A stretch of DNA of 64,000 nt from Acholeplasma sp. (GCA_036677365.1 JAVBWN010000031.1:12975-76974), one strand, 5' to 3'; positions 365-48,140 are shown, numbered from the stretch's first letter. Made by a program: numbers and translations. Notes: generated from the letters alone by a model not told the origin.

Positions 365-372
365 TATGCCTC

Positions 373-696
373 CTATAAAAGAATCAGTGGATCAATTGTT
401 AAAATACGCTCTTGGCGACTAATCCCTCCAATAATAATTTCCATTTTTGAATATTGCTTTTCAGTTAACATTAAGAGTCTAATTTGTCCCTTTTTAGGAC
501 ATTCTTTCTTTAAGATAGATATATGATTCGTAGCTGCATCTCGATTAGGTAAGATTTTCGAATATACTGAGTATTGCAACATTAAGTAACCTTTTGATAT
601 GAGATATTTTCTGAATAAAGCATAAGTTCGTCGATCTTTTTTGGATTTAACTGGTAAATCAAACATTACAATGAGTCTCATAATTTCATAATCCAT
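373..696 (-). CDS. cas2: CRISPR-associated endoribonuclease Cas2
   Basis: MRLIVMFDLPV...FRKYLISKGYLMLQYSVYSK motif of type II Cas2; start placed at MDYEIM, overlapping the end of cas1. Confidence 0.95.
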   Translation of the reverse strand: MDYEIMRLIVMFDLPVKSKKDRRTYALFRKYLISKGYLMLQYSVYSKILPNRDAATNHISILKKECPKKGQIRLLMLTEKQYSKMEIIIGGISRQERILTIDPLILL

Positions 697-1582: not shown

Positions 1583-1587
1583 AATAT

Positions 1588-1693
1588 AAAAAAGAGAACC
1601 CACTCGAAAGTGGGTTCGATTTCGGGAATATCTCCCTTGTCTTGCTAGGTCCTCTAAACCTTTGCTACCTAAGTATCCCTGCTACGAGGATAC
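1588..1693 (-). ncRNA. tracrRNA
   Basis: Between cas9 and cas1: anti-repeat (1639-1672) ending CTAGCAAGAC, nexus AAGG-GAGATATTCCC-GAAATC like St1 tracrRNA, terminal hairpin GAACCCACT-TTCG-AGTGGGTTC plus U-tract, own promoter. Confidence 0.85.
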
Positions 1694-1699
1694 ATTAGT

Positions 1700-1728
1700 A
1701 TTATAACAAATTATATTTCCAGTTTCAA
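1700..1728 (-). promoter_or_regulatory. sigmaA promoter of tracrRNA (overlaps the cas9 3' end)
   Basis: TTGAAA-N17-TATAAT with extended TG; predicted +1 at G1693. Confidence 0.75.
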
Positions 1729-4700
1729 GACCTCTTTATTAGCAACGAACAACTTTCCAATTGTATTTACATGATACTTTTGAATGGACTTAATTTTTTT
1801 ACCGATAGATACTGTAATCTGTTTATCATCTTTTTTTGTTATTGATTTTACTTCAATTCGATTCATCGAGTCATTAGAGGTACCAATGAACCTATAAGTT
1901 GAAGATTTTCCATCAAATGTCACTATTTCAACAATTTCATTTCGATATAACGAATATTGAAAATGATAAGCGCTATCAATGGATTTTTCTTCAAGTTTCT
2001 CTCTATATAAACTCCTGGAAACAATATATCTATTGTCTTGTTTTTTGAAATTACTATATCTAAGTGTAATAAACTTGTACTCTCCATCGTCTGATTTATA
2101 TAAATCAATTCGATAAGGGGATACTTGAAGCAATACAACTTTCTTTTTATCAGATCGAGATTTAGTAATATCGATACTGTTGCCTAACTGATCTTCTTTG
2201 TATTTTAAATCAGTAATAACTGGTCCATCAATTTTACCATGTTTTCTCAACTTCCCGTGGTTTTGCTGATATGCAAGAAATGGTTTTGGTTCATGTCTAT
2301 ACTGCAGGTATGCTTTTTCAACATGGTCATAAGATACTTTATCGTGCATGTACATGAGTAAATTTTGTTTCTTTTTATCGTCTTCGAATATTTTTGCAAG
2401 ATCGTCTTTCTTCATTTCATAAATGTTCTTATATTTTTTTATGACGTAATGGGTACCACCAAAACTACGAGTAGAATAGATTGTTTGATCGGATATGCTA
2501 CGGTTTGGTTTAGTATCTTTTTTCCAAGAAAATCGAATGTCATTATCGCTCAAATTGCTTATCGATTTACAAAACATAATGAACTTACTATCTTTCTTCG
2601 GATCTGCTTCAAATAGCTCACCAGTTTTTGGATTGTGTACAATACCCGACTCATTCTTAGTTACATTGAATAAGTAACTAAAAAGCTTTTGGTTGCTTAA
2701 TCCAGCGATAATCAAAGCATCTATTGCATGATGTGAATATATATTTCGATCCTTATTAAATGGGTTATTATCATTTGAATCCGGATTATCTCTATACCAT
2801 TGAGTTTTTGCAATATTTCTAAATAAATCCGTTTGTTTTCCTTTTATAGTAGTTACAGTTGTCTCAATGTTATGATTCTCAAAATATTGTTTTAATGTCA
2901 TCATGAATGCCTTAATGGCATAAGATGTATCCACGAGATTTCGATTAATAAATTCTTTCATGACATCGTACTTTGTTATATCTCTTTCATCCAATAAATT
3001 TGCTTTTTTATAGCGAGAAATATTTGGGTTATTTAGCACAATTTCTTTAAATGTCTCATAATTTTGAATCAAAAAGCGACTATCTACTTTGCCAGACTTA
3101 AAATAACTAAATGGTGTTAAGTTCCCTTTGATTTGATTTGCTAATGGTGTAATTAATACCTTGTTATGATACGAATCATCCAATGAAATCGAAAATGGAA
3201 TGATGTGATCTACTTCATATGCTTTAGGATCAGTAATCAGTTTATGTAGGTTTATTTGTGTTCCCGAGTAGGCACATTTACCATTTTGTTCTTTATAAAG
3301 TCTGAGTTTTTGAATCATGATTGGTTTTACATCTATATTCGTATCTCCAATCAATTCTTTAAGTTCATTCTCAGCTTCTAGTTTAGATTTTTCTTGTTTC
3401 TTTTGTCGATCTCTAATAGTAGCAGCCTGTTCTTTAGAATTTTTATCTCGTGTTGTTTCTATAACTATTCGATCAAATTGTCCATAGGTTTTCATTAGAG
3501 CATCCACAACTTTAAATGCTTCCTGTTGGGCTCTCCTTGCCACAGGTGATAAAATAACACTATCGCTTAATGAAAGGGTATTGTTGATGTTCAACTTATC
3601 GGTTAGTTTGATGATTTGTTGGGCATTATAATCATCGTTCAATAATTCATTATCTAATATCCTTAATGCCTTTAGTGAGAATGAATGGTAACCATTTATA
3701 CCACTTAACTCTGCTAAAACTTTAACTGATTTTGGAGTTAATCCCAAAGTTTCAAGCAATTTAACTCTTTCATCAATGACTAATGTAGATGTCAAAATTT
3801 CGGCTATTGTATCATATAAATCGTTATTAAATGAATCCAAATTTGTCTCATCGTTTAGTGCTTTTCTAATCTTAAAGTAACCTTCAAGTTCTGAAATTAA
3901 TGGTTCATTCTTATTGTTCACTCTAAACCCTTTAATATCTGATAAATCAAAACCTAGTTGTTTTAATAAACCTTTTACACCTTTAGGTTTAAAATATCCA
4001 TTATGAATTAAGAACTGAAGGGCTTTTTCTTTTTCATCTCTCGATAGTTTACGATTATCTTGAGAAATTATAGTCAGGTTATTTAAGTCATTCAATAAAT
4101 TATAAATTTCAGCTGACAGTGCATTTTTAGGTGCTCTTAATTCCTCCGGATAAATTGAACATTTACCCCGCATGATTTCGATTAAATTTAGGGGTTGTTT
4201 GTTAATAATATCACCAGATGATAGTACAAGGTAATCAATACCCTCACGATGAATTGTAAACTTAGCTTTTTTATATTGGTTTCGCTCAATCTCAGTAAAA
4301 CTAGAGATAAGATCATGTTTAATTTTTTGCTCAACACTTCTATATCTGCCGTATGGGGTTGGCGAATTCAAACTACCTGGTCCATCTGAAAAGTGACGTC
4401 TTCTTCTAATGATGGATAAAACACTTGATGTGAACTTATCTGACATTTCCTGTACAAAGAGCATTTGTTTTATTTCATTTTCATACTGAATGGTTCTATA
4501 TACATTTTCATGACCACGAATGCTTCCAAACTGGTTTAAAGCATCTATTTGAAGATGAACTATGTGTTTTTCTTTATGTAACATGTTATCATGCTTTTGA
4601 AGAATGAACTTCGGACTTTCTTCATTTTTCGTTTCTTCTACTGTCTCTAAATTCGAACCCCGACGCTTTGAATATTGAATTAATGCGGAAGCCAATTCAT

Positions 4701-5004
4701 CAGCGGTTAATTTGCATGTTAAACCTTTTAATCGAGAATGATATGGATCTGCTTTAGGTTTGTAGTCAATTACTGGGATGATTTTATTATCAAAAAGTAG
4801 TTGACGCATATCTAAAATTCGTAATTTCCTACGATTTTTTAAACGTCTTTGACTTCTAAAACTGCGTCGTTTTGTATTGTCTTCAGAATCTGCCTCTTCA
4901 AAAAGCCGAACGCCTGCTTTAACTATTTTATTGCTATCATCTATGATTCCCCAACCAACTGAAGTAATACCAATATCTAAACCAAGTATTAGTTTTTTAT
5001 CCAT
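1711..5004 (-). CDS. cas9: Type II-A Cas9 (compact, 1097 aa)
   Basis: RuvC-I GLDIGITSVGW, Arg-rich bridge helix, RuvC-II IVIE, HNH YEVDHIIP...NKVL...NQIKGN, RuvC-III HHAIDA; catalytic residues present. Confidence 0.98.
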   Translation of the reverse strand: MDKKLILGLDIGITSVGWGIIDDSNKIVKAGVRLFEEADSEDNTKRRSFRSQRRLKNRRKLRILDMRQLLFDNKIIPVIDYKPKADPYHSRLKGLTCKLTADELASALIQYSKRRGSNLETVEETKNEESPKFILQKHDNMLHKEKHIVHLQIDALNQFGSIRGHENVYRTIQYENEIKQMLFVQEMSDKFTSSVLSIIRRRRHFSDGPGSLNSPTPYGRYRSVEQKIKHDLISSFTEIERNQYKKAKFTIHREGIDYLVLSSGDIINKQPLNLIEIMRGKCSIYPEELRAPKNALSAEIYNLLNDLNNLTIISQDNRKLSRDEKEKALQFLIHNGYFKPKGVKGLLKQLGFDLSDIKGFRVNNKNEPLISELEGYFKIRKALNDETNLDSFNNDLYDTIAEILTSTLVIDERVKLLETLGLTPKSVKVLAELSGINGYHSFSLKALRILDNELLNDDYNAQQIIKLTDKLNINNTLSLSDSVILSPVARRAQQEAFKVVDALMKTYGQFDRIVIETTRDKNSKEQAATIRDRQKKQEKSKLEAENELKELIGDTNIDVKPIMIQKLRLYKEQNGKCAYSGTQINLHKLITDPKAYEVDHIIPFSISLDDSYHNKVLITPLANQIKGNLTPFSYFKSGKVDSRFLIQNYETFKEIVLNNPNISRYKKANLLDERDITKYDVMKEFINRNLVDTSYAIKAFMMTLKQYFENHNIETTVTTIKGKQTDLFRNIAKTQWYRDNPDSNDNNPFNKDRNIYSHHAIDALIIAGLSNQKLFSYLFNVTKNESGIVHNPKTGELFEADPKKDSKFIMFCKSISNLSDNDIRFSWKKDTKPNRSISDQTIYSTRSFGGTHYVIKKYKNIYEMKKDDLAKIFEDDKKKQNLLMYMHDKVSYDHVEKAYLQYRHEPKPFLAYQQNHGKLRKHGKIDGPVITDLKYKEDQLGNSIDITKSRSDKKKVVLLQVSPYRIDLYKSDDGEYKFITLRYSNFKKQDNRYIVSRSLYREKLEEKSIDSAYHFQYSLYRNEIVEIVTFDGKSSTYRFIGTSNDSMNRIEVKSITKKDDKQITVSIGKKIKSIQKYHVNTIGKLFVANKEVLKLEI

Positions 5005-5046
5005 TTTATCTATCCTTTCAATAATTAGAATCTTCTCATTAACTTT

Positions 5047-5075
5047 ATTATATCAGTTAACTGTAACGGTTACAA
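5047..5075 (-). promoter_or_regulatory. cas9 promoter with overlapping palindromes
   Basis: TTGTAA-N17-TATAAT with extended TG; palindromes CAGTTAACTG (5054-5063) and TGTAAC-N-GTTACA (5062-5074). Confidence 0.65.
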
Positions 5076-5397
5076 TAAACAGAAACAAATAACCTAATAA
5101 TAAATATATGTTACATTCATAAGCCAATAATACCCAAGCCAAAAGGGTTAAACTGTAAAATAATTCATTTGCCTTAAATAATATATGTCCTCATTTTTAA
5201 AAATAGAGCCCCAAAATCCAGTTAAACAATAAAACCATGCCTTTACCGCACGGTTTAATTGCTATTATTGCAGATTATTTAATTACGCATCAGAAGACAA
5301 ACTCAAGTAACGCACAATATGTTCAATTTTAATCATCGAAAGACAGTAAATTATGAAACAAAATTGATTCTACTTATTGTGAAATAATTTGAACTAA

Positions 5398-7491
5398 TCA
5401 TCTATTGTTTGTTGGAAGGTATTTCGATACGATTTTAATTATTTCTTCACCGTACTTACTTACTTGCGTTATGCTTAATTTACACTCGGATACCAATTGT
5501 TGTGTTGTCTTCGGCAACGAGACCGATATTTTATCGATTTGCTTGTTTGTTAATATATAGTATGCTGGAACCGTTTTGTTAAGTTCACTATACTTTCTTT
5601 TTCTAAAATCCATTAAGGCATCTGACAACTGTGGTTTGTCTATGTCTTCAATCTCTTCAGCTGATAACAATCTAGCAAAATTTTCTTGTGATTTTGGTGA
5701 TAAGTATCTATTTAATACCTCATAACCGAATTTGGAATCCGTTCTGAATTTAAATGCTACATAGGTTAATACATGACGATAATAACTATTATCATTTTTT
5801 GTAAAATTTGAATAGGCATAGGCAGGATTTTGTTCCTTAAACCTTAAATATGTTGGTATTGCTATTTCTTTGAATATGAAATCAAACAAGTCATAGCTTC
5901 TAGATCTTTTAGTAAATTCATCGAAATCTTCTATTAATATTATTTGACCAATATCATTTTGCGATACATAAGGCATAAATTCATTTGTTTTTGTAGGAAA
6001 CAATGAATCATGTTTGCTTAGTAAGTACCTTAATTCATCGTTGTAGTACATTTTGGTTAGGAATCCCAATACACCTAACATCCAAAAGAACCCATTTTTT
6101 GCCATACCAATCAATTCTGGTGAACTTTGAGCATCTCTAGATATGTAATTTTTCCATTTATGATATTCGATTTTTAAAAATTGAAATGACATCAATAAAT
6201 TTGAACTGTATGTATTTTTATATATTTTTCTGTAATATGGTTCATGTGATAACATTTTATTTTTACTATTTCTAGCAAGACCAGGATGCTGATAGATAAA
6301 TGAAAATATCATTTGACCCATTTCATCATTAGTAGCATTTTGCCATGGTTCCTTATAAATCGTTTTATTGATTTTTTCACCGCGTTTAACCTGAAGAAAT
6401 ATACCAATATCGTTCATTTGTTTTTTAAGTCTATGTTGTTCAATTCTATTTGCAATAAGATCCTTAGTTTTAATTGGTTTTTGTGTATTACTTGTTTCTG
6501 CGATTTTTGTTAAAAATAGTAGATTTTCCTCATAGTTGTCATATTTAGGTTTAATGATTTTACATAATATTGGAAAATCTTCTTCAAACTCTGTATTACC
6601 AATCAAATTTGTTGTTTGACCGCCATTGACAATTGAAAAGTTTGATAAATGTATTATGTCATCTTCTATCCAGTAATCTTCACAAGTAATGATAATGCCA
6701 TTATTAAAATACCAAAATTTTTCTGGTTCAAATTGAATTGTGTGCTTTATGTTTTCATCAATTTTGGCTGATTTTACATAGTATCTGAGATTACTTGCAA
6801 ATAATCCATTATTAGCAGATTTAATAAACACTTCCTTTAGTGATTTAGCTGATATACTTGTCACAATAGATTTTTCATTCCCATGATACATTAGTGAGTT
6901 TTTGTCCAGTAAATTGAGTTGTCCTTGCTTTACGAATAATGTCGGTGAGTCAATGTCAAATAGCGTCTCCTGAATATCATCTCCAAAAATGATGTTAAAA
7001 CTAATAGTACTTAACTGTCCTTTATAGTTTGATATTACATTTTTAAGTTCACTTTTAAGGGTGAAATCCAAAAAAGCATCTGATAAAAGCATGACATTTA
7101 ATTCGGAATGGTTTATCGCATTTAGTTTTAACAACTGCTCCCTAATGGATCTTGTTTCGTTATTACTAATCCCATTAATTGCATTAACAATCAATTGGTC
7201 AATTTTGTCCAATCTTGAAATGATTTTTGCTGGGTCAAGTTCTTCTTTTCTAACAGTTCCATAGATGTCAAAACTTTGTTCATCAACTAGACTTGGCATT
7301 ATAGCTTGAATATAACTATTTTTGATAATGTTATCTTCCAACTCATCGATAGCGACTGGATCTGCATTATAAACTTGATAATGCAAAAATAGTCTTGGTA
7401 GCAATTCCTCTATATCTGAGTTCTTGCTGATTATTGTATGATCATTCTCAAAATAAAGTTCAACCAATTCTCCATAATATTTATCAAACAT
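5398..7491 (-). CDS. AIPR (abortive infection phage resistance) family protein with C-terminal HRDC domain
   Basis: AIPR motifs LFASNLRYY, FWYFNNGIII, SIVNGGQTT, SNTQKPIK..DL; C-terminal LMDFRK...VPAYYILTNKQI...PKT...KYGEEII matches the HRDC pattern. Confidence 0.85.
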   Translation of the reverse strand: MFDKYYGELVELYFENDHTIISKNSDIEELLPRLFLHYQVYNADPVAIDELEDNIIKNSYIQAIMPSLVDEQSFDIYGTVRKEELDPAKIISRLDKIDQLIVNAINGISNNETRSIREQLLKLNAINHSELNVMLLSDAFLDFTLKSELKNVISNYKGQLSTISFNIIFGDDIQETLFDIDSPTLFVKQGQLNLLDKNSLMYHGNEKSIVTSISAKSLKEVFIKSANNGLFASNLRYYVKSAKIDENIKHTIQFEPEKFWYFNNGIIITCEDYWIEDDIIHLSNFSIVNGGQTTNLIGNTEFEEDFPILCKIIKPKYDNYEENLLFLTKIAETSNTQKPIKTKDLIANRIEQHRLKKQMNDIGIFLQVKRGEKINKTIYKEPWQNATNDEMGQMIFSFIYQHPGLARNSKNKMLSHEPYYRKIYKNTYSSNLLMSFQFLKIEYHKWKNYISRDAQSSPELIGMAKNGFFWMLGVLGFLTKMYYNDELRYLLSKHDSLFPTKTNEFMPYVSQNDIGQIILIEDFDEFTKRSRSYDLFDFIFKEIAIPTYLRFKEQNPAYAYSNFTKNDNSYYRHVLTYVAFKFRTDSKFGYEVLNRYLSPKSQENFARLLSAEEIEDIDKPQLSDALMDFRKRKYSELNKTVPAYYILTNKQIDKISVSLPKTTQQLVSECKLSITQVSKYGEEIIKIVSKYLPTNNR

Positions 7492-7764
7492 TTAGTTTCC
7501 TCTTTCCATAAATATAGTCATTTCAAACATGTGTAATAAGCCCAAATATTAAAATTGATATTAACACATGAACGAATGGACTTAATTTAATTAGATCATG
7601 ATTTAATGTATATGTCAAGATCATGGATTAATAAAAAAATCAAGCATTCGCATGATTTTTTTTAATGTAATGGCTTTTTATTTTTTATAGGCTTATGATG
7701 GTAATTATAAACTTAAATCGAAATCAGTTTGTTTAGAAGAAAACTTAGATTATATTACTTCATA

Positions 7765-8724
7765 TCAGGATATTAGAGATTGATAGAACTTAGTAATATA
7801 ATGGTGTTCTAATGATAATAAGAGTTCTTCTTTTTGATTTGAATCATGAATTAGTTCTAATAGTTTTTGATTGCGTTCTTCTAACTTCTGAATATAACTA
7901 TCTTTAGGTGGTTTATTTGATTTGGAGCTATTATTCGATTTTGAAGTGATAACCAAATTCCATAAGTCATCTGAATACATATAAGACCAAGGAATAAAAT
8001 GATCGACTGAAATTTCTTCAATTGAAATAACTTCATCGGTATAGAAATCTCTGATTTCATCCTTATATAGTAACAGTAATATGTCTTTATATTTAGAAAG
8101 GTTATTACGCTTTACCTTATTATCTGACGAGCCCTTGACCTTGGAAACAATGCGTGGCTGTGTATTGTATTTTTCTAAAAGTTGTGCCCACTTATAATTA
8201 AATAGTTGAATCAATACTTCACTGTATGCTTTCAATGAACTCGATTGTTCTAATGTCATTTCGATGTATTTTTGTTTTTTATTTAGTTGATAAATGGCTA
8301 ATGATTCTTTGTCTAAAATCATGAATCGCCAAGAAACATCTACTTTTAATACACTAGATATCTTTTGGACGGTTTTCTCGATAATTGCAGCATCGATATC
8401 AGTGATGGCTTTATCAAACCATACGGGAATATTGGATACTTGTGTTTTGTAAATTTCAATCAATTCACTGGTCAACTGAACAACAATCGGTGGATGCTCA
8501 TAACTAGCACTTTGTTTTAAATTGAAAAAGAAGGTTTGATTCCAGTAATACTTAAGCATGTTCTTAGCGATTGAATCAAATGAAATTCTATAATTGAATT
8601 CGATTTCGAATCCTTCATTGCATGAGACACATTCGATGATGGCTCTGCCCCATGCTAATTTATAGGTGTTATCGTTAGACATCCCATTTAAGATATCAAA
8701 CCATTGTTTAATATAGGTATCCAT
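7765..8724 (-). CDS. HNH endonuclease domain protein (putative restriction/defence nuclease)
   Basis: VDHFIPWSY...DDLWNLV...NSSKSN HNH motif; N-terminal NTYKLAW segment. Confidence 0.8.
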   Translation of the reverse strand: MDTYIKQWFDILNGMSNDNTYKLAWGRAIIECVSCNEGFEIEFNYRISFDSIAKNMLKYYWNQTFFFNLKQSASYEHPPIVVQLTSELIEIYKTQVSNIPVWFDKAITDIDAAIIEKTVQKISSVLKVDVSWRFMILDKESLAIYQLNKKQKYIEMTLEQSSSLKAYSEVLIQLFNYKWAQLLEKYNTQPRIVSKVKGSSDNKVKRNNLSKYKDILLLLYKDEIRDFYTDEVISIEEISVDHFIPWSYMYSDDLWNLVITSKSNNSSKSNKPPKDSYIQKLEERNQKLLELIHDSNQKEELLLSLEHHYITKFYQSLIS

Positions 8725-9089
8725 CAGTAACTCATCTTTCCAGGAATGACGCCTCTAATACCACCACGTGGTTGGGGGGTATCCCCATGATAACGTGGAA
8801 TCAAATGTAGATGTAGATGCATAATCGTTTGACCAGCCGCCTCACCGTTATTGATTCCGATATTGTAACCATCTGGATGAAATTCCTTATCCAATTTTGA
8901 TTTCACATACATCAAAGCTCCATCGATTGATTGTTTTTCCTCTATTGTTAAATCAAAGTAGTTTGACACATGCCTTTTAGTGATGATGAGTGTATGACCG
9001 GGATTCACTGGAAATCCATCATATATGGCATAAACAAAAGTATTTTGATAGATGATTTTAAGATCATTTTGATTACAAAATAGACACAT
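8724..9089 (-). CDS. HIT family hydrolase
   Basis: MCLFC, FPVNPGHTLII, GEAAGQTIMHLHLHLIPR histidine triad; SD GGAGG at 9099-9103. Confidence 0.92.
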   Translation of the reverse strand: MCLFCNQNDLKIIYQNTFVYAIYDGFPVNPGHTLIITKRHVSNYFDLTIEEKQSIDGALMYVKSKLDKEFHPDGYNIGINNGEAAGQTIMHLHLHLIPRYHGDTPQPRGGIRGVIPGKMSY

Positions 9090-9190
9090 AAAGAATAGCC
9101 TCCTAGAATTCACTTCTACTTAAATTATACCTTTTTTGATAACAAAAACTATATTTATTTAGATGATTCATTATATGCGTCGAATTCTGT

Positions 9191-23713: not shown

Positions 23714-26700
23714 TTAATTAGTTTTTTTCGAAACCATTGCCAATAAACTATGACGATACTTATAAGTCACAAGTCCAATGGGTAGTAATAATACTAAGAA
23801 CCACCATGCCCAACTAGCATTGGATGATTTTTCATATACCAAAACAAAGTTAGAAAATTGATTTGTTTCGAAAGTAATGGTCTGAAGTTTTTCATCATAT
23901 GTACAATCCAGCATTTCTACTTGTCCATCGTGTATACGAATTATTTGATAATTTTTATGACCTTGTTCTAATTCTCCCAATTGTAAGGTAATTTGGACAT
24001 TTTGTGTTAAATCAGTAATCAAAATATCACTTTGTCCTTCGACCTTGATGATAACACTGATGTCCATAACGGCGTATTGTTGATGCTTTGTGAGTTGTGA
24101 CTGAATGAGTTCTATGAGGTCTAAATTAACTTCTGTGGTGTGTTTACGAACGAATTGAATCATAATTTCACCATTCATGTTTTCAACCATGGTTAAATCG
24201 ATTGCTTCAAGTAATCCTGTCATCTCAAGATCAGTATTCCCCATATCTATGGTTGAAACTTTAATCCAGCAGGCTTCTATGGTCATATCACCTGCTGGCA
24301 TCATGGATGGTACATTTTGATTCCATCCATTAAACAGATGGCCAGTTTTAGTTGGGTTTGTAGGTAATACAATGGCTGATCCATATGTTTGTATCAGTGG
24401 TTCTACCATATTTCCACCTTTGGTGTCAAAAGTGATTGTATAAGTATTGATTGACCATTTGGCGTAAAGTGTGATGTCTTCCGCAGGCATCGTATCAAAT
24501 GTATATGCACTGCTCAACGCTTCATCACTATACCATCCACCAAAGGTGTATCCCAGTTTGGTAGGGTTGGCTGGTTGACTTATATTTGAGCCATAAGCTT
24601 GTGAAATAGTGGATATTGCACTGCCTAAATTACTGTTGAACGCGATGTTGTAAGTATTGATCGACCACTTCGCGTATAGGGTGATGTCTTCAGCTGGCAT
24701 CGTATCAAATGTATACGCACTGCTCAACGCTTCATCACTATACCATCCAACAAAGGTATATCCCAGTTTGGTAGGGTTGGCTGGTTGATTCACGCTAGAA
24801 CCATAAGCTTGTGAGATGCTTGAAACAGCACTACCAGCGTTACTGTTAAATGTGATGTTGTAAGTATTGATCGTCCATTTGGCGTAAAGTGTGATGTCTT
24901 CCGCAGGCATCGTATCAAAAGTGTATGCACTGCTCAACGCTTCATCGCTATACCATCCACCAAAGGTGTATCCTGGTTTGGTAGGGTTGGCTGGTTGATT
25001 CACGCTAGAACCATAAGCTTGTGAAATAGTGGATATCACACTGCCTAAATTACTATTAAATGTGATGTTATACGTATTGATCGACCACTTCGCGTATAGG
25101 GTGATGTCTTCAGCTGGCATCGTATCAAAAGTGTATGCAATGCTCAACGCTTCATCACTATACCATCCAACAAAGGTGTATCCCAGTTTGGTAGGGTTGG
25201 CTGGTTGATTCACGCTAGAACCATAAGCTTGTGAAATAGTAGATACGGCACTACCAGTGTTACTATTGAAGGTGATGGAAACGAATTCTACTGTCCATTT
25301 TGCCCAGTACGTTTTCGCACCAACATCGTTCAATGAAATCCACTGGACGGTTTGACCTGTTAGTTCTTCATTATCATACCAACCTTCAAATACATACCCC
25401 ACTCTTACGATTTTTTGATTGTTCGGTAAGGTTAAACCTACCCCTTCGGTATACGTTTGTGGTAAGTCATAACCAAGAATGGTATTCCCACCGTTTAAGT
25501 TAAACGTAATAACTGAATTGACAGCTGTCAAAATCATGAATTCTGCATAAACAGATTGAGTACTGGTTATATTAGTCAATGTAACGGTTGATACTGCACC
25601 GATACTTACACCATTGACTTTGACATCTTTAATTTGATACCCCAGATTTGGCGTTATTGTATAGGTCAAGCTGCTCCCGTTTGAAACCACGGTGTAGCCT
25701 TTTGGACTGATGGTCCCTTGTACATCACTATTGGCATAAACAGCGATGTCAGATGGTAATATTTTTTCGAACGTGACATCGATTTGTGTATCACTGGTGA
25801 TCCCTGAAACACTGTAATTGTGATTGACGATGTCCATTTTTTTATCTTCGCCATTGACGGTAAATGTCGCAACTTTATAACCATTCATCGGGATAATTTG
25901 ATAATTTTGAACTGTCCCGTCATAAATGATACTGCCCAAAGGGTAAATCGTACCATTGTCACCCGACGTGGATAAAATCGTGTGTTGTGTGACACCACCC
26001 CATTTGGCATAAAAGACTTGATTATCGAAAGTTGTCGCATCGATTTCAGTGATTTCATCACCAGAAAGCATCGCATTATCATACCAACCTTCAAATGTCT
26101 TTTCTGCCCATACAGGTATCGGTAGTGTGACCGTATCCCCATATGTATAAGCCGTTTGAACTGAAGTGTTGAATGACCCACCATTCGTCCAATAATCTAT
26201 TTTATACGTAGATTTGGTCCAAATAGCATAAATTGTTTGATTTGAACTTAGCGTTAAGATGTCTTTTGGTAAATACGTTGTCCCTAAACCATCTGGACTT
26301 GTATTCCAATGAGAAAAGGTATGTCCCGTTTTTGTAAACATAGGCTCACTCACACTGATTTTATCTACCACTGAAATGTTTGAAGTTTCATTGGTACCAT
26401 GGTTAGCGTCGTAAGTGAGTGTTTTTAAATCCGCTGTGACATACTTCAACTCACCATTGCTGGTATTGTACGCAACAGCTTGGGTGATGTTATCAGCGAA
26501 AAATATTTTGTTGACATCCTCATGGGTATTCCCACTGGTGGTGTAATTGGATGTGAGTTGTTCACCAGCACCACCCCATAAGCCAATCGATGCGTAATTT
26601 CTAACCCCAGCTACTTCTGTATACAACTCACCCAATATTTTGATTGAATTTACAGATTCAGTGGAATAGCTTAAGTTCGTCGATATATATTGATTTGTAT

Positions 26701-27754
26701 AATAGTCATAATAGTGATTATTGACAATTCTAGGGGCACCAGATAAAGAAACAATAGATGCGCCATTGCCCACATTATCGGTTGCGACCCCTGCACCACC
26801 AACGAACATCGAACTGGTATTTGAATAGTTATACGCTGTATCAAATGCATAGTTGTCTTCGATGATACCGCCATAAATATTGACACGAGCAGGCATGTAA
26901 CTTGAACCAAATAAATAAATCCCAGCGCCGCCATATCGGCTACTATTCCCAACAATTTGACCTTGATGAAGGTTAAAAGTCCCCCCGTCCATTACCCCTA
27001 CTGTGCCACTACGTTGTCTTTTGCCACCCCATTGTGATAAAGCAGTTGATGTATTGCCACTGAGTGTTCCACCGTATAAGTTCACTGTACCACCGGTGTT
27101 TCCAACCAAAATAGCAGACCCACCTCCGGTATAGTTAAAGTTGGATTTTAAGTCTGTCTTAGTTGCATACTTATGACCACCGGTGATGATACCTCCAACG
27201 ATTACACCGTCACCAATGTCATTAAAATCGTAATACCTTTGGAATAGTTTCTGATCATAATCGATGCTATTGTAATAGATATCTTGTGTGGCGGTTGCCT
27301 CAACCTCTTTGATTTTATAGTTGTGTACTTTATTGCTCGTATCACAGTCATAAATGTTCAATGTCCCACCAGTAACTGTGAAAATGCTTTGATCTGAATT
27401 TAATGCCCCCCAAAGGATATTACCATTCAAATCAATATTCACCACACCACTGGAAATAGCAATGTTGGTGTTGAGGGTTACATTACCATCCAAGTAATAA
27501 TTCCCACTCGAAATCACCCCACCGCTGCTTGGCAGTGGTATCCAATCATTGATATCACCACATGTGCTCGAATAACTCAACGGTGAAGCGACTATCGTTT
27601 CATTCGCTTGTGGTTCATTGAACGCGTTTTCTATGCTTTGTAATGGATTCAAATTGAAATCCACCATACCGAGTTGAATAACCCATAAAAAAACGAATAA
27701 AGCAATCATCCAAAATATGTTTTTGTTCGTATGTCTTGTGTTGTTATAATTCAT
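23714..27754 (-). CDS. Large surface protein with InlB B/Listeria-Bacteroides (Flg_new) repeats and a C-terminal membrane anchor
   Basis: N-terminal TM, beta-helix-like Gly/Asn-rich region, many PTKxGYTFxGW...LYAKW repeats, C-terminal WAWWFLVLLL TM; SD GGGAG before ATG 27754. Confidence 0.85.
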   Translation of the reverse strand: MNYNNTRHTNKNIFWMIALFVFLWVIQLGMVDFNLNPLQSIENAFNEPQANETIVASPLSYSSTCGDINDWIPLPSSGGVISSGNYYLDGNVTLNTNIAISSGVVNIDLNGNILWGALNSDQSIFTVTGGTLNIYDCDTSNKVHNYKIKEVEATATQDIYYNSIDYDQKLFQRYYDFNDIGDGVIVGGIITGGHKYATKTDLKSNFNYTGGGSAILVGNTGGTVNLYGGTLSGNTSTALSQWGGKRQRSGTVGVMDGGTFNLHQGQIVGNSSRYGGAGIYLFGSSYMPARVNIYGGIIEDNYAFDTAYNYSNTSSMFVGGAGVATDNVGNGASIVSLSGAPRIVNNHYYDYYTNQYISTNLSYSTESVNSIKILGELYTEVAGVRNYASIGLWGGAGEQLTSNYTTSGNTHEDVNKIFFADNITQAVAYNTSNGELKYVTADLKTLTYDANHGTNETSNISVVDKISVSEPMFTKTGHTFSHWNTSPDGLGTTYLPKDILTLSSNQTIYAIWTKSTYKIDYWTNGGSFNTSVQTAYTYGDTVTLPIPVWAEKTFEGWYDNAMLSGDEITEIDATTFDNQVFYAKWGGVTQHTILSTSGDNGTIYPLGSIIYDGTVQNYQIIPMNGYKVATFTVNGEDKKMDIVNHNYSVSGITSDTQIDVTFEKILPSDIAVYANSDVQGTISPKGYTVVSNGSSLTYTITPNLGYQIKDVKVNGVSIGAVSTVTLTNITSTQSVYAEFMILTAVNSVITFNLNGGNTILGYDLPQTYTEGVGLTLPNNQKIVRVGYVFEGWYDNEELTGQTVQWISLNDVGAKTYWAKWTVEFVSITFNSNTGSAVSTISQAYGSSVNQPANPTKLGYTFVGWYSDEALSIAYTFDTMPAEDITLYAKWSINTYNITFNSNLGSVISTISQAYGSSVNQPANPTKPGYTFGGWYSDEALSSAYTFDTMPAEDITLYAKWTINTYNITFNSNAGSAVSSISQAYGSSVNQPANPTKLGYTFVGWYSDEALSSAYTFDTMPAEDITLYAKWSINTYNIAFNSNLGSAISTISQAYGSNISQPANPTKLGYTFGGWYSDEALSSAYTFDTMPAEDITLYAKWSINTYTITFDTKGGNMVEPLIQTYGSAIVLPTNPTKTGHLFNGWNQNVPSMMPAGDMTIEACWIKVSTIDMGNTDLEMTGLLEAIDLTMVENMNGEIMIQFVRKHTTEVNLDLIELIQSQLTKHQQYAVMDISVIIKVEGQSDILITDLTQNVQITLQLGELEQGHKNYQIIRIHDGQVEMLDCTYDEKLQTITFETNQFSNFVLVYEKSSNASWAWWFLVLLLPIGLVTYKYRHSLLAMVSKKTN
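24440..25275. repeat. Four 210-bp tandem coding repeats (A-B-A-B)
   Basis: Equivalent positions at 24461, 24671, 24881 and 25091. Confidence 0.9.
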
Positions 27755-27959
27755 TTGATTTTCTCCCTTTGCTATTAAAATGATAATGACATATGCCAGT
27801 GTGTTGATTCTTCTCAAAATCACTAAATTTGCAGAAAGCACATAACTTTACTGCCACTAAACTACCTTCTTTGGGTGCATAAAATGCACAACTATCCAAT
27901 ACTTTAACGATGATGGTTTCAATGTTTTTCTCGACTGCGTTGGTATGATCTACTTCCAC
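27744..27959 (-). CDS. Small Cys-rich protein (71 aa)
   Basis: Strong SD AAGGAGGT before GTG; pattern C-AFY...CAFC...GICHYH; overlaps the start of the surface-protein gene. Confidence 0.7.
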   Translation of the reverse strand: MEVDHTNAVEKNIETIIVKVLDSCAFYAPKEGSLVAVKLCAFCKFSDFEKNQHTGICHYHFNSKGRKSNEL

Positions 27960-28111: not shown

Positions 28112-29398
28112 TTAATTTTGTTTCGGGAATATGATGCGCGTGCTAAATTCACTTTTATTCTGTTTGAATTCAACCATCCCACCATACTTTTGAACAATGT
28201 GTTTAACGCTGATTGCCCCTGTGCCACCACCGGTTTTTGTGGTGATTGGTAACCCATCGGTAAACTCAACGAAACCTTCCATGCTATTGACAATTTCTAT
28301 GAGGATACTCTCGTTTTCAAGGCAAGATTTATACGTGATGTAGCGGTCATCGAACATGCAGTTTTTGGCAGCGATGAATGCATTTTCCAATAGATTGGAT
28401 AATACAACACCGAGATCAGGGAGTTGATTATTCAATAAATGGTCTGCTTCAGATTGAACCTTGAATACGATGTGATATTCTTTGGACCGTCTGTCATATA
28501 TCCTGAATACCGCATTCGCAATCGGGTTTTTGGAGTAATCTTTGATGCTGTGTTCTTTGATATTATCATCATATAACTTCAGATAGTGCAGTGCACTTTC
28601 GACCTCACCACGATTTAAATACTCAAGCAAAATCGAATTGTGATGTCTGATGTCGTGTCGGGTTTGTTTGGCCGCATTCAATGTTGATTCATACGATTCA
28701 ATCTCACTTCTTAGAAGCAATTCATTGGCCTGGCGTTTGATGTTTTCTTCTCTAAACTGATATTTTGTTCTTAAACTCTTCAAAGAAAAAATGATTGCAC
28801 TATACTCGAGTAATGTAATCAAACATAGCAAATAAAAATAGATCATATTGGCTTGCATTGAACTTTGAATTTCACCGAGTGACAACAAAATGTAGAGATA
28901 ACTGATTAAAATGCCGGTGATTGGGAGTAAAAATGCCCCCCAGTTCTCAGAGACATCTAAATACAAGGGTCGAATGATTTTCTTAACTATCACGATGGTA
29001 ATGGAGAAAAACAAGATTCTAATGATGGTATTTACATAAGCTGGGTATGGAAAAACCCTAGAAATAAAATAACTCGAAATAACGACCATCGCGTAAATGA
29101 TGAGTACAGTAACACTATTAAAAAGCCATTGATAGAGCCGATCCTTGAGTATAAACTGATAACCAAAGATAATCATTAAATACGAGAATAATGAATAATA
29201 CAGTACAAATGTATAGTTTTTTGTGTAATAAAAAGGGATACAAATCATTAAATCAACGACAACCACAGACAATACAATCCACGCATGTGTCTTTGGACTG
29301 ATTTTTGTTTTTGACAAGATTGGTAATAAAAGTAAGATACTGATGGCTGTGATGCTACCCCGCAAGAGGTCTGGAAAAATCTCTAGAAATATCGTCAT
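28112..29398 (-). CDS. AgrC-like membrane GHKL histidine kinase
   Basis: Multiple TMs, RHDIRHH H-box, SNLLENAF, TTK.GGGTG. Confidence 0.9.
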   Translation of the reverse strand: MTIFLEIFPDLLRGSITAISILLLLPILSKTKISPKTHAWIVLSVVVVDLMICIPFYYTKNYTFVLYYSLFSYLMIIFGYQFILKDRLYQWLFNSVTVLIIYAMVVISSYFISRVFPYPAYVNTIIRILFFSITIVIVKKIIRPLYLDVSENWGAFLLPITGILISYLYILLSLGEIQSSMQANMIYFYLLCLITLLEYSAIIFSLKSLRTKYQFREENIKRQANELLLRSEIESYESTLNAAKQTRHDIRHHNSILLEYLNRGEVESALHYLKLYDDNIKEHSIKDYSKNPIANAVFRIYDRRSKEYHIVFKVQSEADHLLNNQLPDLGVVLSNLLENAFIAAKNCMFDDRYITYKSCLENESILIEIVNSMEGFVEFTDGLPITTKTGGGTGAISVKHIVQKYGGMVEFKQNKSEFSTRIIFPKQN

Positions 29399-30123
29399 TG
29401 TCGCCCCTTAAACATATAATCAAAATAGGTTTGTTTTATAGAATTGAACGTTCTTCGTGGAATGGGTATATGGATACCACGCTTCAGCACGATACAGTCA
29501 TTTTGGATTGAAGCGATGGCATGTTGATTTACGATAAAGCCTTTATAGGGTCGGATGAATTGCTCCGGTGACACTTGATTGAGTCGATTAAAAAGTTCAG
29601 TTAACGTTTGGACAGTTTCGATAGGCGCACCATCAAAGCGAAAAACAAATTGATGGTGTGCATTGGACTCGATATGACTGATACTATCCAAGTCAATGGT
29701 TTGAACGACCCCTTTTGTACCTTTGAATTGAATCACCTTTTTCTGACTTCGATCCATATTTGAAAGAGCGCGGTTCATGGCTTCGATAAAGACATCTTGC
29801 TTAAATGGTTTCAAGAGATAGTGCGTCGCTTTGACTTCAAATGCATCGACTGCGAATTCATTGGATGTGGTTAGGAAAATAATTTCTGTTTTATCTTGTT
29901 TCATTCGAATTTCTCTCGCGATGTCCGTGCCCAATACGCCAGGCATAACGATATCTAGGAGAACCATATCGTACTTTTTTTTATCATAGGCATCGAGAAA
30001 ATCGAATGCATGATGAAATGTCTCAATGTCAACCATTAAGTTTTTTGATTGAAAATATTCAATTGTCGCTTTCTTGATGATTTCAACTTCTTGAGTTAAA
30101 TCATCGCATATGGCTATTCTCAT
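29395..30123 (-). CDS. LytTR family response regulator
   Basis: IAICDD, LDIVMP, HYLLKP receiver motifs; FIRPYKGFIVN LytTR motif. Confidence 0.93.
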   Translation of the reverse strand: MRIAICDDLTQEVEIIKKATIEYFQSKNLMVDIETFHHAFDFLDAYDKKKYDMVLLDIVMPGVLGTDIAREIRMKQDKTEIIFLTTSNEFAVDAFEVKATHYLLKPFKQDVFIEAMNRALSNMDRSQKKVIQFKGTKGVVQTIDLDSISHIESNAHHQFVFRFDGAPIETVQTLTELFNRLNQVSPEQFIRPYKGFIVNQHAIASIQNDCIVLKRGIHIPIPRRTFNSIKQTYFDYMFKGRQ

Positions 30124-45005: not shown

Positions 45006-45332
45006 TCAAAACTCCTTCCCAAGCAATTCAAAAGTGGTAAACATCTGTTTAAATTCTGATATGCAATTATCCAGTAGAACGCGTCCTTTTTGAGTCATTT
45101 CGTAGTATCTCCTTCTTTTGCCATGAACTACCTTATCGATGCCCAAAAGTATTCCATCATGAGTCATTTTTTTGAGGAACGGATAAATATATGATGGACC
45201 GGTTCGATAACCCAATCGATTCATTTTATCTATTATCGCAACACCAAAAGTTGGTGATTGGGCAATTAACTTTAATATAACTAATTCATGAAATCCTAAT
45301 TGTATTTTGTTTTTCAGACTTTCGATTAACAT
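45006..45332 (-). CDS. PadR family transcriptional regulator
   Basis: VILKLI...GPSYIYPFLKKM...RRRYYEMTQKG. Confidence 0.88.
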   Translation of the reverse strand: MLIESLKNKIQLGFHELVILKLIAQSPTFGVAIIDKMNRLGYRTGPSYIYPFLKKMTHDGILLGIDKVVHGKRRRYYEMTQKGRVLLDNCISEFKQMFTTFELLGKEF

Positions 45333-45425
45333 CGTTTCACCTTCTTGTCTTTTTATGATATCATTTTTTTATATTATACATTTAAAGTTCAATCTTTACA
45401 AGAAAGAAATTTAAAACTGGTTGTA

Positions 45426-45458
45426 TAAAAAAAGTCTGACACAAATTATGTCAAACCT
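45426..45458 (-). terminator. Terminator of the RNase III cassette
   Basis: GGTTTGACATAATTTGTGTCAGACTTTTTT on the minus strand. Confidence 0.65.
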
Positions 45459-45471
45459 AAGCTTCTTCTGG

Positions 45472-46272
45472 CTATATGCCAAAATAATCACATAAGACGA
45501 GATAAGCAGCGTATCTTTTAGCACCCTTCTTCGATTTGGAGAGTGCTGTTTTGGTTATTGACCAGCTTCTAACATAACAAGTGCATTCCCACCAGAGCAC
45601 ACCATCATCGAGCACTTGTTCTTCAGGTATATCGTATTCAGGTATAGAGCATCTACCGCTTTCAGCTAATTCTTTAAGCGTACTGACTGCATTATCCTGT
45701 GTTAGATTTTCCTTTAATTCGTCGATACCATCTTCTACATCTTGCAGTTGATCTTCAATTTGAAGCATGAATTCCACTGAGTTTTGAAGCTCATCCGGAT
45801 CCCAATCGCTGTCAATTGCGATCGCACCAAGAATTGCTTCAAACAAATCTGCTTTAACTTTTTCTTGATTCCAAACCTTGTTGTCAACATCACTTTGTCC
45901 CAAGTACATCATTGTCTTAAAACCTAGTTCTTCAATTCTTCTAGCAAGATTCGCATTGCTTACGATTTCTTTTTTAAGCTCAGTAAAGTCTTGTTCGTTT
46001 CGATGAGCCTTGATGCAGTATTCATCGTTGTCTTCTTCCTCATTGTAATAATCTGTTTGAGACTTGAAGAATCCGTATCTTTCCGCGATGACTTTGGTCA
46101 CATAAAAATCTAAAACTCTATCGCCTAAGAATTCCAATACCTCATTGTTTTCTCCACCAAATTCAGCTGAATATGACTTTCTGGTGAAAGCTTGAAGCAA
46201 TAAATCCGTGTTCTTAAAATAGTAACTACATTTTCTTTGTACATCATCGATGTGTTCTTTTAAATCATTCAT
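45472..46272 (-). CDS. Divergent ribonuclease III (RIIID + dsRBD), accessory copy
   Basis: NEVLEFLGD signature, ADLFEAILGAIAID, C-terminal dsRBD (STLKELA...PEY...SKKGAKRYAA); SD GGAGG at 46280-46284. Confidence 0.9.
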   Translation of the reverse strand: MNDLKEHIDDVQRKCSYYFKNTDLLLQAFTRKSYSAEFGGENNEVLEFLGDRVLDFYVTKVIAERYGFFKSQTDYYNEEEDNDEYCIKAHRNEQDFTELKKEIVSNANLARRIEELGFKTMMYLGQSDVDNKVWNQEKVKADLFEAILGAIAIDSDWDPDELQNSVEFMLQIEDQLQDVEDGIDELKENLTQDNAVSTLKELAESGRCSIPEYDIPEEQVLDDGVLWWECTCYVRSWSITKTALSKSKKGAKRYAAYLVLCDYFGI

Positions 46273-46292
46273 TTGATTTCCTCCTATGATTT

Positions 46293-46492
46293 GTCCGAGA
46301 AAATAAAAAAGACCTCCCGATGAAATAGGTGTACTCCTGCATAAATACACTTATCCCTTGAATAGGTCTTATTAAATCAAAATAGTACTTGTAAGACTTT
46401 AAGCATATTAACTCCCGCTTCCCGAAAGAATTAATATACAAATCGCGTTACTCAATTACTTTGAGGAAATAATTCCCTTACCTTATCGGACT
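46293..46492 (-). ncRNA. Putative structured leader/ncRNA upstream of RNase III
   Basis: Six nested stems found by eye, including a closing GTCCGA/TCGGAC pair and a ~25-bp hairpin followed by a U-tract; begins at the predicted TSS. Confidence 0.6.
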
Positions 46493-46498
46493 AACTTT

Positions 46499-46527
46499 AA
46501 TATACAATAAAAATGTTATTTTGTCTA
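46499..46527 (-). promoter_or_regulatory. sigmaA promoter of the RNase III cassette
   Basis: TAGACA-N17-TATATT. Confidence 0.65.
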
Positions 46528-46540
46528 TAGCCTCATATTG

Positions 46541-46563
46541 AAAAAAGCCTCTTCATTGAGGCT
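46541..46563 (-). terminator. Terminator of the recombinase operon
   Basis: AGCCTC-AATGAA-GAGGCT-TTTTT. Confidence 0.7.
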
Positions 46564-46571
46564 GATTTTCA

Positions 46572-48140
46572 TTAAATCGTAATTTCTTGTCCATTCTTAA
46601 ATTTGAAACTTACAGTGCTATTCTTGTTCACAACCGCTTCATTCAACATTGTATTCCATAGAACTGAATCGAATACTTCTATGAAATCTTGCTTGTCTTC
46701 AATCTCTTTAACAAAGGATTTCATTGCTTCAGCTTTTTGATTTTTCAACTCACGTTCAATAAGTGTTTCATCCAATTGCTCTTTGAGCGTTTGAAATTTT
46801 TCCAAGTGTGCATTATAGCGTTTCATGTATTCATCTTGGTTTTGTGTTCTTAATGAATTGTCTTTAATCATCCCTTCAATAAGAAGCTTAAGATCGGATA
46901 TCTCGTCATTCAAGCTCTCTATTTTGCTATCAATTTCGGAGGTATCTGTGAGCACTGTGATGAGCTCATTTGTATCTTCAATCAGTTCTTTCTTGTTCAC
47001 CATCACTTGATTGTATGCTTGTACGAACCTCTCATTGATTGATTCTTTGGATAGGCTTGGCGTATCACACTTGTTGATGAATTTCTTATTGCATTGCATC
47101 ATGACTTTACGATGTGGTGTGTTGGAATGCCAAACTTTAGCACCATAAAAGTGTCCACAACAACCACAGATCAACCTTGATGAATAAGGATTAATCGTTG
47201 AATATGCATATTTAAATCTATCTCTACTTGAGAGTTCTTCTTTCACAAGATTCCATTCTTCTTTGTCAATAATGCTTGGATGACTATTCTCAACATAATA
47301 TTGAGTCAGAACACCATTGTTCTTCTTGACGGTGTGGTCGAGGTAATTCTCAACATACCCCTTTTGAAGGAGTGCATCGCCTTTATATTTTTCGTTGGTC
47401 AGTATTGAGGTAATATTCAATGTAGTCCATGCCGTTTTCTTAGATGGTTTGGAATAGTTGTTTCTATTGAGAAACTCTGCAATCGCTGACCTTGACCACC
47501 CATCTCTAAGAAATAACCTGTAAATAAGTTTGACAATCTCGGCTTCATTCTTATTGATGACGATTTTACCATCTACCTTGTCATAGCCTAAGAAATTCTT
47601 ATAAGGCATCTTGACCTTGCCTTCTTTGTAACCCCAACGGATACCCATCTTCACATTCTCACTGATACTTCTACTTTCTTCTTGAGCAATCGCAGCGAGC
47701 ATCGACAGCACCATCTCACTTTTAGAGTCAAAGGTCCATAAGTTTTCTTTTTCAAAGTAGACCTCAACACCTGCAGTTTTCAACTTTCTTATGTGAGTGA
47801 TGGTATCAAGCGTATTTCTTGCGAAGCGTGAGATGGACTTGGTAATAATGAGGTTAATCTTTCCTTCAAGGGCATCTTTAATCATTAGATTGAAACTTGC
47901 TCTGCGTTTGGTACTAGTTCCTGATATGCCCTCATCCGCATAGACGTTCACATAATCCCAGTCAACTCTATCTTGAATGAAATCTTTGTAGTACTTAACC
48001 TGTGCTTCATAAGAACTATACTGCTCATCGGAGTCCGTTGAAACACGAGCATAAGCTGCAACCTTTCTTCTTTCAGACGAATGGATACTTTGCTGTGTTA
48101 GTGGATTGATGGTTGATGGTATGACTCTAACTTTTCCCAT
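46572..48140 (-). CDS. Large serine recombinase
   Basis: AAYARVSTD, YADEGISGT, TKSISRFARN, recombinase domain, CGCCG zinc ribbon, coiled coil. Confidence 0.95.
   Translation of the reverse strand: MGKVRVIPSTINPLTQQSIHSSERRKVAAYARVSTDSDEQYSSYEAQVKYYKDFIQDRVDWDYVNVYADEGISGTSTKRRASFNLMIKDALEGKINLIITKSISRFARNTLDTITHIRKLKTAGVEVYFEKENLWTFDSKSEMVLSMLAAIAQEESRSISENVKMGIRWGYKEGKVKMPYKNFLGYDKVDGKIVINKNEAEIVKLIYRLFLRDGWSRSAIAEFLNRNNYSKPSKKTAWTTLNITSILTNEKYKGDALLQKGYVENYLDHTVKKNNGVLTQYYVENSHPSIIDKEEWNLVKEELSSRDRFKYAYSTINPYSSRLICGCCGHFYGAKVWHSNTPHRKVMMQCNKKFINKCDTPSLSKESINERFVQAYNQVMVNKKELIEDTNELITVLTDTSEIDSKIESLNDEISDLKLLIEGMIKDNSLRTQNQDEYMKRYNAHLEKFQTLKEQLDETLIERELKNQKAEAMKSFVKEIEDKQDFIEVFDSVLWNTMLNEAVVNKNSTVSFKFKNGQEITI

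Follow-up and report, generated by a model that had tools for sequence, protein, structure and literature searches.

A Conserved Four-Way-Junction Leader RNA Accompanies a Mobile, Accessory RNase III Gene in Acholeplasma and Related Bacteria: A Candidate Autoregulatory Module

Introduction

The control of an RNase gene through its own structured leader is already known. In Escherichia coli, RNase III cleaves a hairpin in the leader of its own gene, rnc (rncO, Rfam family RF00552), and thereby a negative feedback is exerted. Type III toxin–antitoxin systems (ToxIN, AbiQ/antiQ, CptIN, and TenpIN) consist of a single protein and an RNA, encoded in the order promoter, non-coding RNA made of tandem direct repeats, terminator, and endoribonuclease gene, and are found in mobile elements and defence islands. 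In pre-rRNA processing stalks, sequences located 5′ and 3′ of an enclosed structured RNA form a long helix that is cut by RNase III. Finally, protein-responsive attenuation leaders (ribosomal-protein leaders, T-box) feature a structured 5′ domain and an intrinsic terminator in front of the coding sequence, with alternative pairing being possible.

The locus studied here resides in a stretch of 64,000 nucleotides from Acholeplasma sp. (GCA_036677365.1, JAVBWN010000031.1:12975-76974), referred to as the window. Like rncO, it places an RNase III gene after a structured 5′ UTR with helices of a length suited to the enzyme, and negative feedback through the leader is proposed. In contrast to rncO, to which no sequence or structure match was obtained even at E ≤ 10, the leader is a four-way junction of approximately 205 nt with a terminator-like arm and a long helix closing its 5′ and 3′ ends (P1), and the gene is an accessory mobile paralog rather than the housekeeping rnc, its autoregulation being proposed from sequence. 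With type III toxin–antitoxin systems, the locus shares the gene order (its terminator being predicted), the mobile and defence-related surroundings, and the restriction to one protein and one RNA. However, the RNA is one structured domain instead of a repeat array, the protein possesses the RNase III fold (only RNase III domains in Pfam) and is no ToxN, AbiQ, CptN, or TenpN toxin, and the conserved fold needs read-through RNA. P1 encloses a structured RNA as a pre-rRNA stalk does, but the enclosed RNA is a leader directly preceding the ribosome-binding site of the enzyme's own gene. The general design of attenuation leaders is likewise recognizable, whereas no match to any such Rfam family was found.

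No description of the RNA or the gene family was found in literature searches or in the main text of PMC5737381, PMC10690425, PMC13276650, and PMC3710099. Within Rfam and the texts searched, the RNA architecture, the combination of terminator and closing helix, and the mobile RNase III family thus appear to be undescribed.

Results and Discussion

Layout of the Unit

The unit (45425-46527, minus strand) is self-contained and comprises a promoter, a 220-nt leader, a gene for an RNase III of 266 amino acids, and a terminator (Table 1). All of these parts had been proposed in a first-pass annotation of the DNA and were recovered where it had placed them. The predicted transcription start (~46492-46491) coincides with the first bases of P1, and homologous loci feature TTGACA/TATAAT-like hexamers with the same spacing to GTCCGA, as judged by eye. 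A nine-codon open reading frame in the window's leader was considered as a leader peptide and rejected, its ATG being missing from homologs upon inspection by eye.

Table 1. Features of the RNase III unit and its upstream flank; positions are counted from the first nucleotide of the window.
Feature	Position	Strand	Evidence or remark
Sigma-70-type promoter TAGACA-N17-TATATT	46499-46527	-	10/12 consensus positions match
Untranslated leader, ~220 nt	~46492-46273	-	
Conserved structured leader RNA, four-way junction (P1, P2, P3-P4, P5)	46281-46496	-	Covariance model R1, 187.3 bits; covariation
P1 core, GUCCGA with UCGGAC	46491-46486 with 46298-46293	-	6/6 core pairs change on both sides
P1 extended, 5′ strand (GUCCGA + AAGGUAA)	46478-46491	-	
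P1 extended, 3′ strand (U-tract tail + UCGGAC)	46293-46307	-	
P2 hairpin, GGAA/UUCC	46476-46473 with 46468-46465	-	Comparative data
P3 long-range helix, encloses P4	46464-46445 with 46397-46377	-	
P4 hairpin	46439-46426 with 46416-46403	-	
P5 lower stem	46370-46364 with 46315-46309	-	
P5 upper stem	46357-46343 with 46336-46322	-	
P5 whole, long imperfect hairpin then UUUUUUAUUUU	46299-46370	-	Terminator-like
Shine-Dalgarno sequence GGAGG	46281-46285	-	8 nt before ATG; read from sequence
RNase III coding sequence, 266 aa + stop codon (ATG at 46272)	45472-46272	-	Pfam RNase III domains
Intrinsic terminator closing the unit (hairpin 45458-45432)	45425-45458	-	Predicted
Large serine recombinase gene, 3′ end facing the unit	46572-48140	-	Upstream neighbour
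Terminator behind the recombinase gene	46563-46546	-	Predicted

In agreement with the earlier placement of the unit directly beyond prophage recombinases, two large serine recombinase genes are located directly upstream, followed by prophage capsid and tail genes (Dit). Downstream, a PadR regulator, ABC transporter genes, HAD, DegV, an IS66 element, and GroEL are encoded. An empty-site comparison of the PadR-ABC region with five genomes of the same genus returned weak ABC-type matches, with which the prophage boundary was not placeable. Elsewhere in the window, a protein of 1375 amino acids with eight Listeria-Bacteroides repeat (Flg_new) domains is encoded (23717-27841), adjoined by a LytTR/GHKL two-component pair (28115-30123).

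An Accessory RNase III

The window protein was recognized by the Pfam models PF14622 (65 bits) and PF00636 (56.6 bits). In an alignment of 16 homologs, the catalytic residues E44, E47, D51, D142, and E145, which we take to be the equivalents of E38, E41, D45, D114, and E117 of E. coli RNase III, are invariant. A profile of this alignment matched solved RNase III chains, among them 1o0w from T. maritima (E = 8e-16), with the alignment extending through the double-stranded RNA-binding domain (dsRBD). Furthermore, the AlphaFold (AF2) model (mean pLDDT 83.7) features the catalytic domain and an alpha-beta-beta-beta-alpha dsRBD at residues 192-264, while an acidic insertion (residues 69-92) is predicted to be disordered. 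Judged by profile and model, the protein is a class-1 (bacterial-type) RNase III with a C-terminal dsRBD. The first-pass annotation had described a divergent RNase III with catalytic residues, dsRBD, and acidic insertion, and each of these elements was found again, the dsRBD in the model.

On the NCBIfam equivalog model for housekeeping rnc (TIGR02191), the protein reached 101.7 bits, which is below the cut-off of 166.25. Five loci with RNase III domains are present in the same genome (1.97 Mb, 99.9% complete). The separate housekeeping rnc on which the earlier interpretation depended is among them, being located directly after plsX, encoding 221 amino acids, and scoring 236.5 bits on the same model. 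The others besides the window's gene are a Mini-III-like gene (127 amino acids) after cysS, an RNase III-like open reading frame (157 amino acids), and a second copy of the window's gene beside a tRNA-Thr gene (genome G000, contig C5; L004, 1388-2187). This copy is leaderless and truncated at its 5′ end, possesses no in-frame start codon, and is interrupted by a TGA stop and a frameshift. By these sequence criteria, the window's RNase III is an accessory gene and not the housekeeping enzyme.

Further features of the coding region (45475-46272) became apparent from the comparison with homologs. Cysteines 208, 232, and 261, located in and around the dsRBD, are invariant among the 16 homologs, and C230 is conserved in at least 90% of them; these four residues might form a metal site or a disulfide bond, an uncommon feature in a dsRBD. 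In the close homologs L041 (3310-3450), L013, L015, L024, L036, and L004, a conserved block of approximately 100 nt follows the stop codon (GGTACTTGGATTACC ... CCGCATACAAGT, then a palindrome). This block is missing from the window, where the protein ends six residues early due to a GAG-to-TAG difference and is followed by a different terminator.

Structure of the Leader RNA

The leader of the window folds with -63.4 kcal/mol, compared to a mean of -45.1 kcal/mol for 200 shuffled sequences, none of which folded as well (z = -4.9). This fold was mapped on a MAFFT alignment of 39 non-redundant leaders that was fitted to no structure. Here, 82.1% of the cells pair (42.5-52.2% with slid partners), 37 out of 62 pairs change on both sides (22-26 when slid), and the score was reached by 0 of 500 shuffles. 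In a model-fitted alignment of 47 sequences, which leans toward structure by construction, 83.9% pair (as opposed to 40.6-51.8%) and 54 out of 61 pairs change on both sides. The leader is a conserved structured RNA with a four-way junction.

Comparative data supported the pairing GTCCGA/TCGGAC (P1), the short hairpin at 46465-46476 (P2), the 14-bp stem (46403-46439; P4), and the long hairpin followed by a U-run (46309-46370; P5), all of which had been noted by eye in the window before. P5 and its U-run, a predicted terminator, are kept in 47 out of 47 aligned members. P1 extends beyond the pairing noted earlier to approximately 12-17 bp, with the 5′ end pairing with the tail of the U-run and the bases following it, and entirely different sequences form it in the different subtypes; on average, its duplex energy amounts to -12.5 kcal/mol versus -4.4 kcal/mol for shuffled sequences and -8.05 kcal/mol for non-cognate partners. 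P1 abuts P5 without a linker. Since P1 pairs the 5′ end with sequence beyond the terminator, the conserved fold belongs to RNA that has been read through P5.

Two elements of the fold drawn by eye were not retained. The helix GTAAG/CTTAC is complementary in the window, but it pairs in 63.3% of the cells versus 59.9% after shuffling, and its covariation score was reached by 283 of 500 shuffles. A local hairpin at 46451-46465 is without covariation (124 of 500 shuffles reached its score), and a long-range helix competing with it, CAAAGU:AUUUUG, holds in all subtypes.

The most conserved unpaired element is the apical loop of P4, with the family consensus AUGCrAGYGG (GGGAAGCGGGA in the window). 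GTG[GA] occurs in this loop in 33 of the 47 sequences, and most others, including the clade of the window, feature GCG[GA], the latter as judged by eye. A string related to the loop motif recurs near the apex of P5 in many members (by eye). Searches for known RNA families gave no assignment: Rfam returned 0 matches at gathering score over the whole window and, over 46200-46600, only chance-level matches (E = 0.79-7.7), none of them being rncO. Within 45300-46700, TRF found 0 tandem arrays and a repeat search 0 families of direct repeats.

Highly conserved unpaired nucleotides in a junction of several helices, the conserved loop of P4, and a terminator placed ahead of the ribosome-binding site would also be expected of a riboswitch-like attenuator. 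Such a device would respond to something other than its own protein, e.g., a small molecule, a tRNA, or another RNA or protein, and would activate RNase III expression when the terminator is read through. It could make use of an alternative pairing between the 5′ strand and the 3′ side of P5: 76.2% of its cells pair versus 20.0-58.2% with slid partners, and 35 cells show double changes versus 7-18. However, this pairing is supported mainly in subtype A and weak outside it, with a mean of -8.0 kcal/mol versus -6.6 kcal/mol for non-cognate partners. Moreover, T-box and the known riboswitches are among the Rfam families that gave no match, and in the genomes scanned the RNA precedes a single gene family and no other gene. 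We therefore regard an attenuator of this type as quite unlikely.

Association of Leader and Gene

When the leader DNA was used as the sole query, related genomes were found in which the gene always lies behind the leader. In total, 150 loci were collected from genomes, metagenomes, and viral contigs, 127 of them being distinct after reduction. Homologous loci were compared where the protein identity is at least 50%, the 5′ end is intact, and 260 nt or more of upstream sequence is available. Of 64 such loci, 58 possess the full leader directly upstream, ending 15-52 nt before the start codon. The earlier proposal had looked to homologous leaders for a shared, covarying structure, and this is what these leaders contain.

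Two of the six exceptions keep only the 3′ half of the leader, and the other four gave no nhmmer match. All or half of the leader is missing from L023, L008, L074, L051, L077, and L035, although the coding sequence is intact there as far as it is visible, so that the leader is not an absolute requirement. L074 retains the last ~60 nt of the leader, L077 features a plain promoter in its place, and L035 is a fragment. In L023 (2409-2560, minus strand), a foreign sequence (GGGTGCGTAATTGTATTAAAATAGGTCAT...) is present instead of the 5′ half of the leader, and in L051 (680-760), it takes the place of the whole leader; the leader of L008 is broken at the same point as that of L023 (TTGATTTAAT). The foreign sequence may represent the end of an inserted element or mark a preferred insertion site within the leader. 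The notion that the leader is the att site of a prophage was discarded, as it also accompanies the gene in loci without a recombinase.

Eight more copies, represented by 5′-truncated matches and in several cases located beside tRNA-Thr, possess no leader and either lack an in-frame start codon or contain stops. Such a leaderless, truncated copy lies approximately 200-300 nt downstream of tRNA-Thr(CGT) in L004, and also in L016/L025, L044, L047, L017, and L020.

Covariance model R1 yielded 35 matches outside the window in distant or leaderless loci, which are weak (E ≤ 1); all 35 share the orientation of a homolog with 35-49% identity and precede it by no more than ~100 nt. In five gene-carrying genomes, seven out of seven model matches lie directly before a homolog, and orphan copies were not found. 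The model matched the genome of the window and none of 149 other genomes of the class, which were searched with stricter filters and 15 candidates scored per genome. RNA and gene thus co-occur almost one to one across deep divergence.

This persistence bears on the possibility that the leader is passive. It would then stabilize the 5′ end or form a stalk that is processed by RNases of the host (housekeeping RNase III, RNase J, or RNase Y), without being coupled specifically to the downstream enzyme. The base-paired 5′ end in P1 and the presence of a housekeeping rnc are consistent with such a role. However, RNA and gene remain together from 100% down to ~35% protein identity and in host families with different flanks, which is hard to explain otherwise than by a specific functional coupling; the passive role is accordingly considered very improbable.

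Concerning the distribution of the protein, a search retrieved at least 965 clusters at E ≤ 0.001 among 1864 candidates. The best 120 of the 965 clusters feature identities of 64-92% and are mostly 270-293 amino acids long. Titled records refer to Mycoplasmatota, Acholeplasmataceae, Izimaplasma, Mariniplasma, a Christensenella MAG, and an uncultured Bacilli bacterium. The gene is patchily distributed, being present in 14 of 399 genomes sampled across the class and in 12 of 218 genera. Longer relatives (344-379 amino acids, 35-50% identity) possess the same catalytic domain, with a canonical Pfam dsrm domain at the C-terminus.

Genomic Context and Defence Neighbours

Among the 42 loci examined (the window and 41 others), no conserved neighbour or partner gene was found. 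Large serine recombinase genes or fragments adjoin the unit in 12 of them, and holin, lysin, or tail genes are nearby in five; the unit of L124 is flanked by a holin on one side and two recombinases on the other, i.e., it is located inside a prophage. Other loci feature ParA/ParB, TnpV, Fic, ParE, SymE-like, or Panacea-domain neighbours. A neighbour matched a PADLOC model (E ≤ 1e-8) at 14 out of 39 loci, two of the 14 being doubtful (L093, a PcrA-like helicase, and L113, a weak match). These neighbours include BrxA/B, BrxL with AbiTii, HEC-05/GmrSD, UzuA (twice), PDC-S01 (twice), PDC-S04, PDC-S56, PD-Lambda-2_B, an OLD/GajA-like ATPase, and a reverse transcriptase with a helicase. As a raw count, this is only suggestive of an enrichment. 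Since its neighbours are prophage ends, recombinases, and defence genes, none of them conserved, the unit is an accessory cassette of mobile elements and variable islands.

Two particular neighbourhoods are noted separately. A homolog of UzuA (Uzume defence) lies beside the unit in two unrelated loci (L081, 3785-4618; L028, 111-833), and the gene directly downstream in L059 encodes an aminoglycoside-2''-adenylyltransferase domain.

Relatives are encoded on 31 IMG/VR viral contigs, often near the contig end. In contrast, tblastn against 50,697 phage and 72,556 plasmid records gave no match, which is weak evidence because these collections hold few records from such hosts. PADLOC-DB 2.0 returned no system for the window protein beyond a chance-level MTase match.

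RNA evidence consists of assembled contigs, which cannot show transcript ends. In metatranscriptome X7, one contig of 199 nt lies wholly on the leader (46280-46478), the absence of contigs over the coding sequence being uninformative. A related strain is represented in run X2, taken to be RNA by guess, by a contig of 376 nt (46215-46587) that runs from the recombinase end across promoter and leader into the beginning of the coding sequence. In run X1, which is probably DNA, a contig of 551 nt joins the leader and the first third of the gene, whereas run X10 contributed no contig.

These observations bear on a module akin to type III toxin–antitoxin or abortive-infection systems, in which the abundant leader RNA, terminated or excised, would bind RNase III and hold it inactive until the phage-induced loss of this labile RNA frees the nuclease to destroy RNA of the cell or the phage. 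The order of promoter, structured RNA, terminator, and endoribonuclease gene, the missing conserved protein partner, the recombinases, holins, and lysins, the defence neighbours, the decayed leaderless copies beside tRNA-Thr, and the single X7 contig confined to the leader would all be in line with it. However, there are no tandem RNA repeats, and the nuclease is outside the ToxN/AbiQ family and without a PADLOC model match. P1 covaries and requires sequence past the terminator, which makes the conserved fold that of read-through RNA, whereas L023, L008, L074, and L077 carry intact genes with half a leader or none. The phage and plasmid records, few as they are for such hosts, and the doubtful PADLOC contexts of L093 and L113 also count against it. 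Taken together, an antitoxin role of this kind appears unlikely.

The window also contains a defence cluster (2-9113) with a putative type II-A system of Cas9 (1097 amino acids), Cas1, Cas2, and a fourth open reading frame without a Pfam match; an AIPR/HRDC protein (5401-7491) and an HNH protein (7768-8724) are encoded beside the cas genes. The suggestion that the RNase III might affect tracrRNA:crRNA processing was not supported: the Cas9-Cas1-Cas2 genes are ~40 kb away, none of the 41 related loci examined has cas neighbours, and the housekeeping RNase III is present. Rfam detected no tracrRNA or CRISPR repeat family in the whole window.

Proposed Autoregulation

The reading we prefer, with a probability of roughly 0.5, is that of a cognate autoregulatory leader, bound or cleaved by the RNase III encoded behind it. 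Two considerations argue for recognition of the RNA by its own enzyme, namely, the close and old association of a single RNA with a single nuclease family, and the architecture, in which two long arms with conserved apical sequence (P3-P4 and P5) are combined with a long closing helix stacked on the terminator hairpin.

In the simplest model, which would extend the known control of E. coli rnc by analogy, the leader RNA would be a specific binding and cleavage substrate of the RNase III behind it and would set the enzyme level. Most transcripts would end at P5, limiting expression, while read-through RNA would form P1, stacked on P5 to give a helix long enough for RNase III. Plentiful enzyme would bind or cut the leader and thereby stabilize the terminator and/or sever the base-paired 5′ end, so that the mRNA would be terminated or would decay. 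A shortage of the enzyme, or its titration by other double-stranded RNA, would raise expression.

Some considerations weigh against autoregulation. Six of the 64 loci do without all or half of the leader. The junction and the strongly conserved unpaired stretches exceed the needs of a plain RNase III site and would fit a sensor of another ligand, the enzyme acting on the leader could be the host's housekeeping RNase III, and the defence-island context points beyond simple homeostasis. On contextual grounds, a wider role may be proposed for the RNA–RNase III pair as a stand-alone module of immunity or inter-element conflict in prophages and defence islands, with a Dicer-like nuclease directed against double-stranded RNA. 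The leader would guard the enzyme as a decoy or antitoxin and sense load, and phage double-stranded RNA or a shut-off of transcription would draw the enzyme off or deplete the leader, unleashing and up-regulating the nuclease. This role is compatible with autoregulation and is put forward tentatively, being rather unlikely.

Regarding the original proposal of a coupled ncRNA–RNase III module, the coupling itself stands, because covarying leaders were found and the gene is not the only rnc of its genome; its extension to CRISPR RNA processing was dropped.

Conclusions

The unit is a member of a widespread but patchy accessory RNase III family in Mycoplasmatota and Bacillota that travels with mobile elements, each member with its cognate leader RNA of ~205 nt. 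The analysis defines a class of structured RNA with strong covariation outside the Rfam families, which is coupled one to one with mobile RNase III paralogs of an uncharacterised family. Most likely, the RNA–enzyme pair lets the enzyme control its own production, and it may act in conflicts with phages. The family would offer a natural, co-evolving pair of RNase III and substrate for studying how RNase III enzymes gain specificity, and it suggests, as a testable idea, that an additional RNase III may serve certain bacteria and their prophages in defence or in the conflict of mobile elements with one another.
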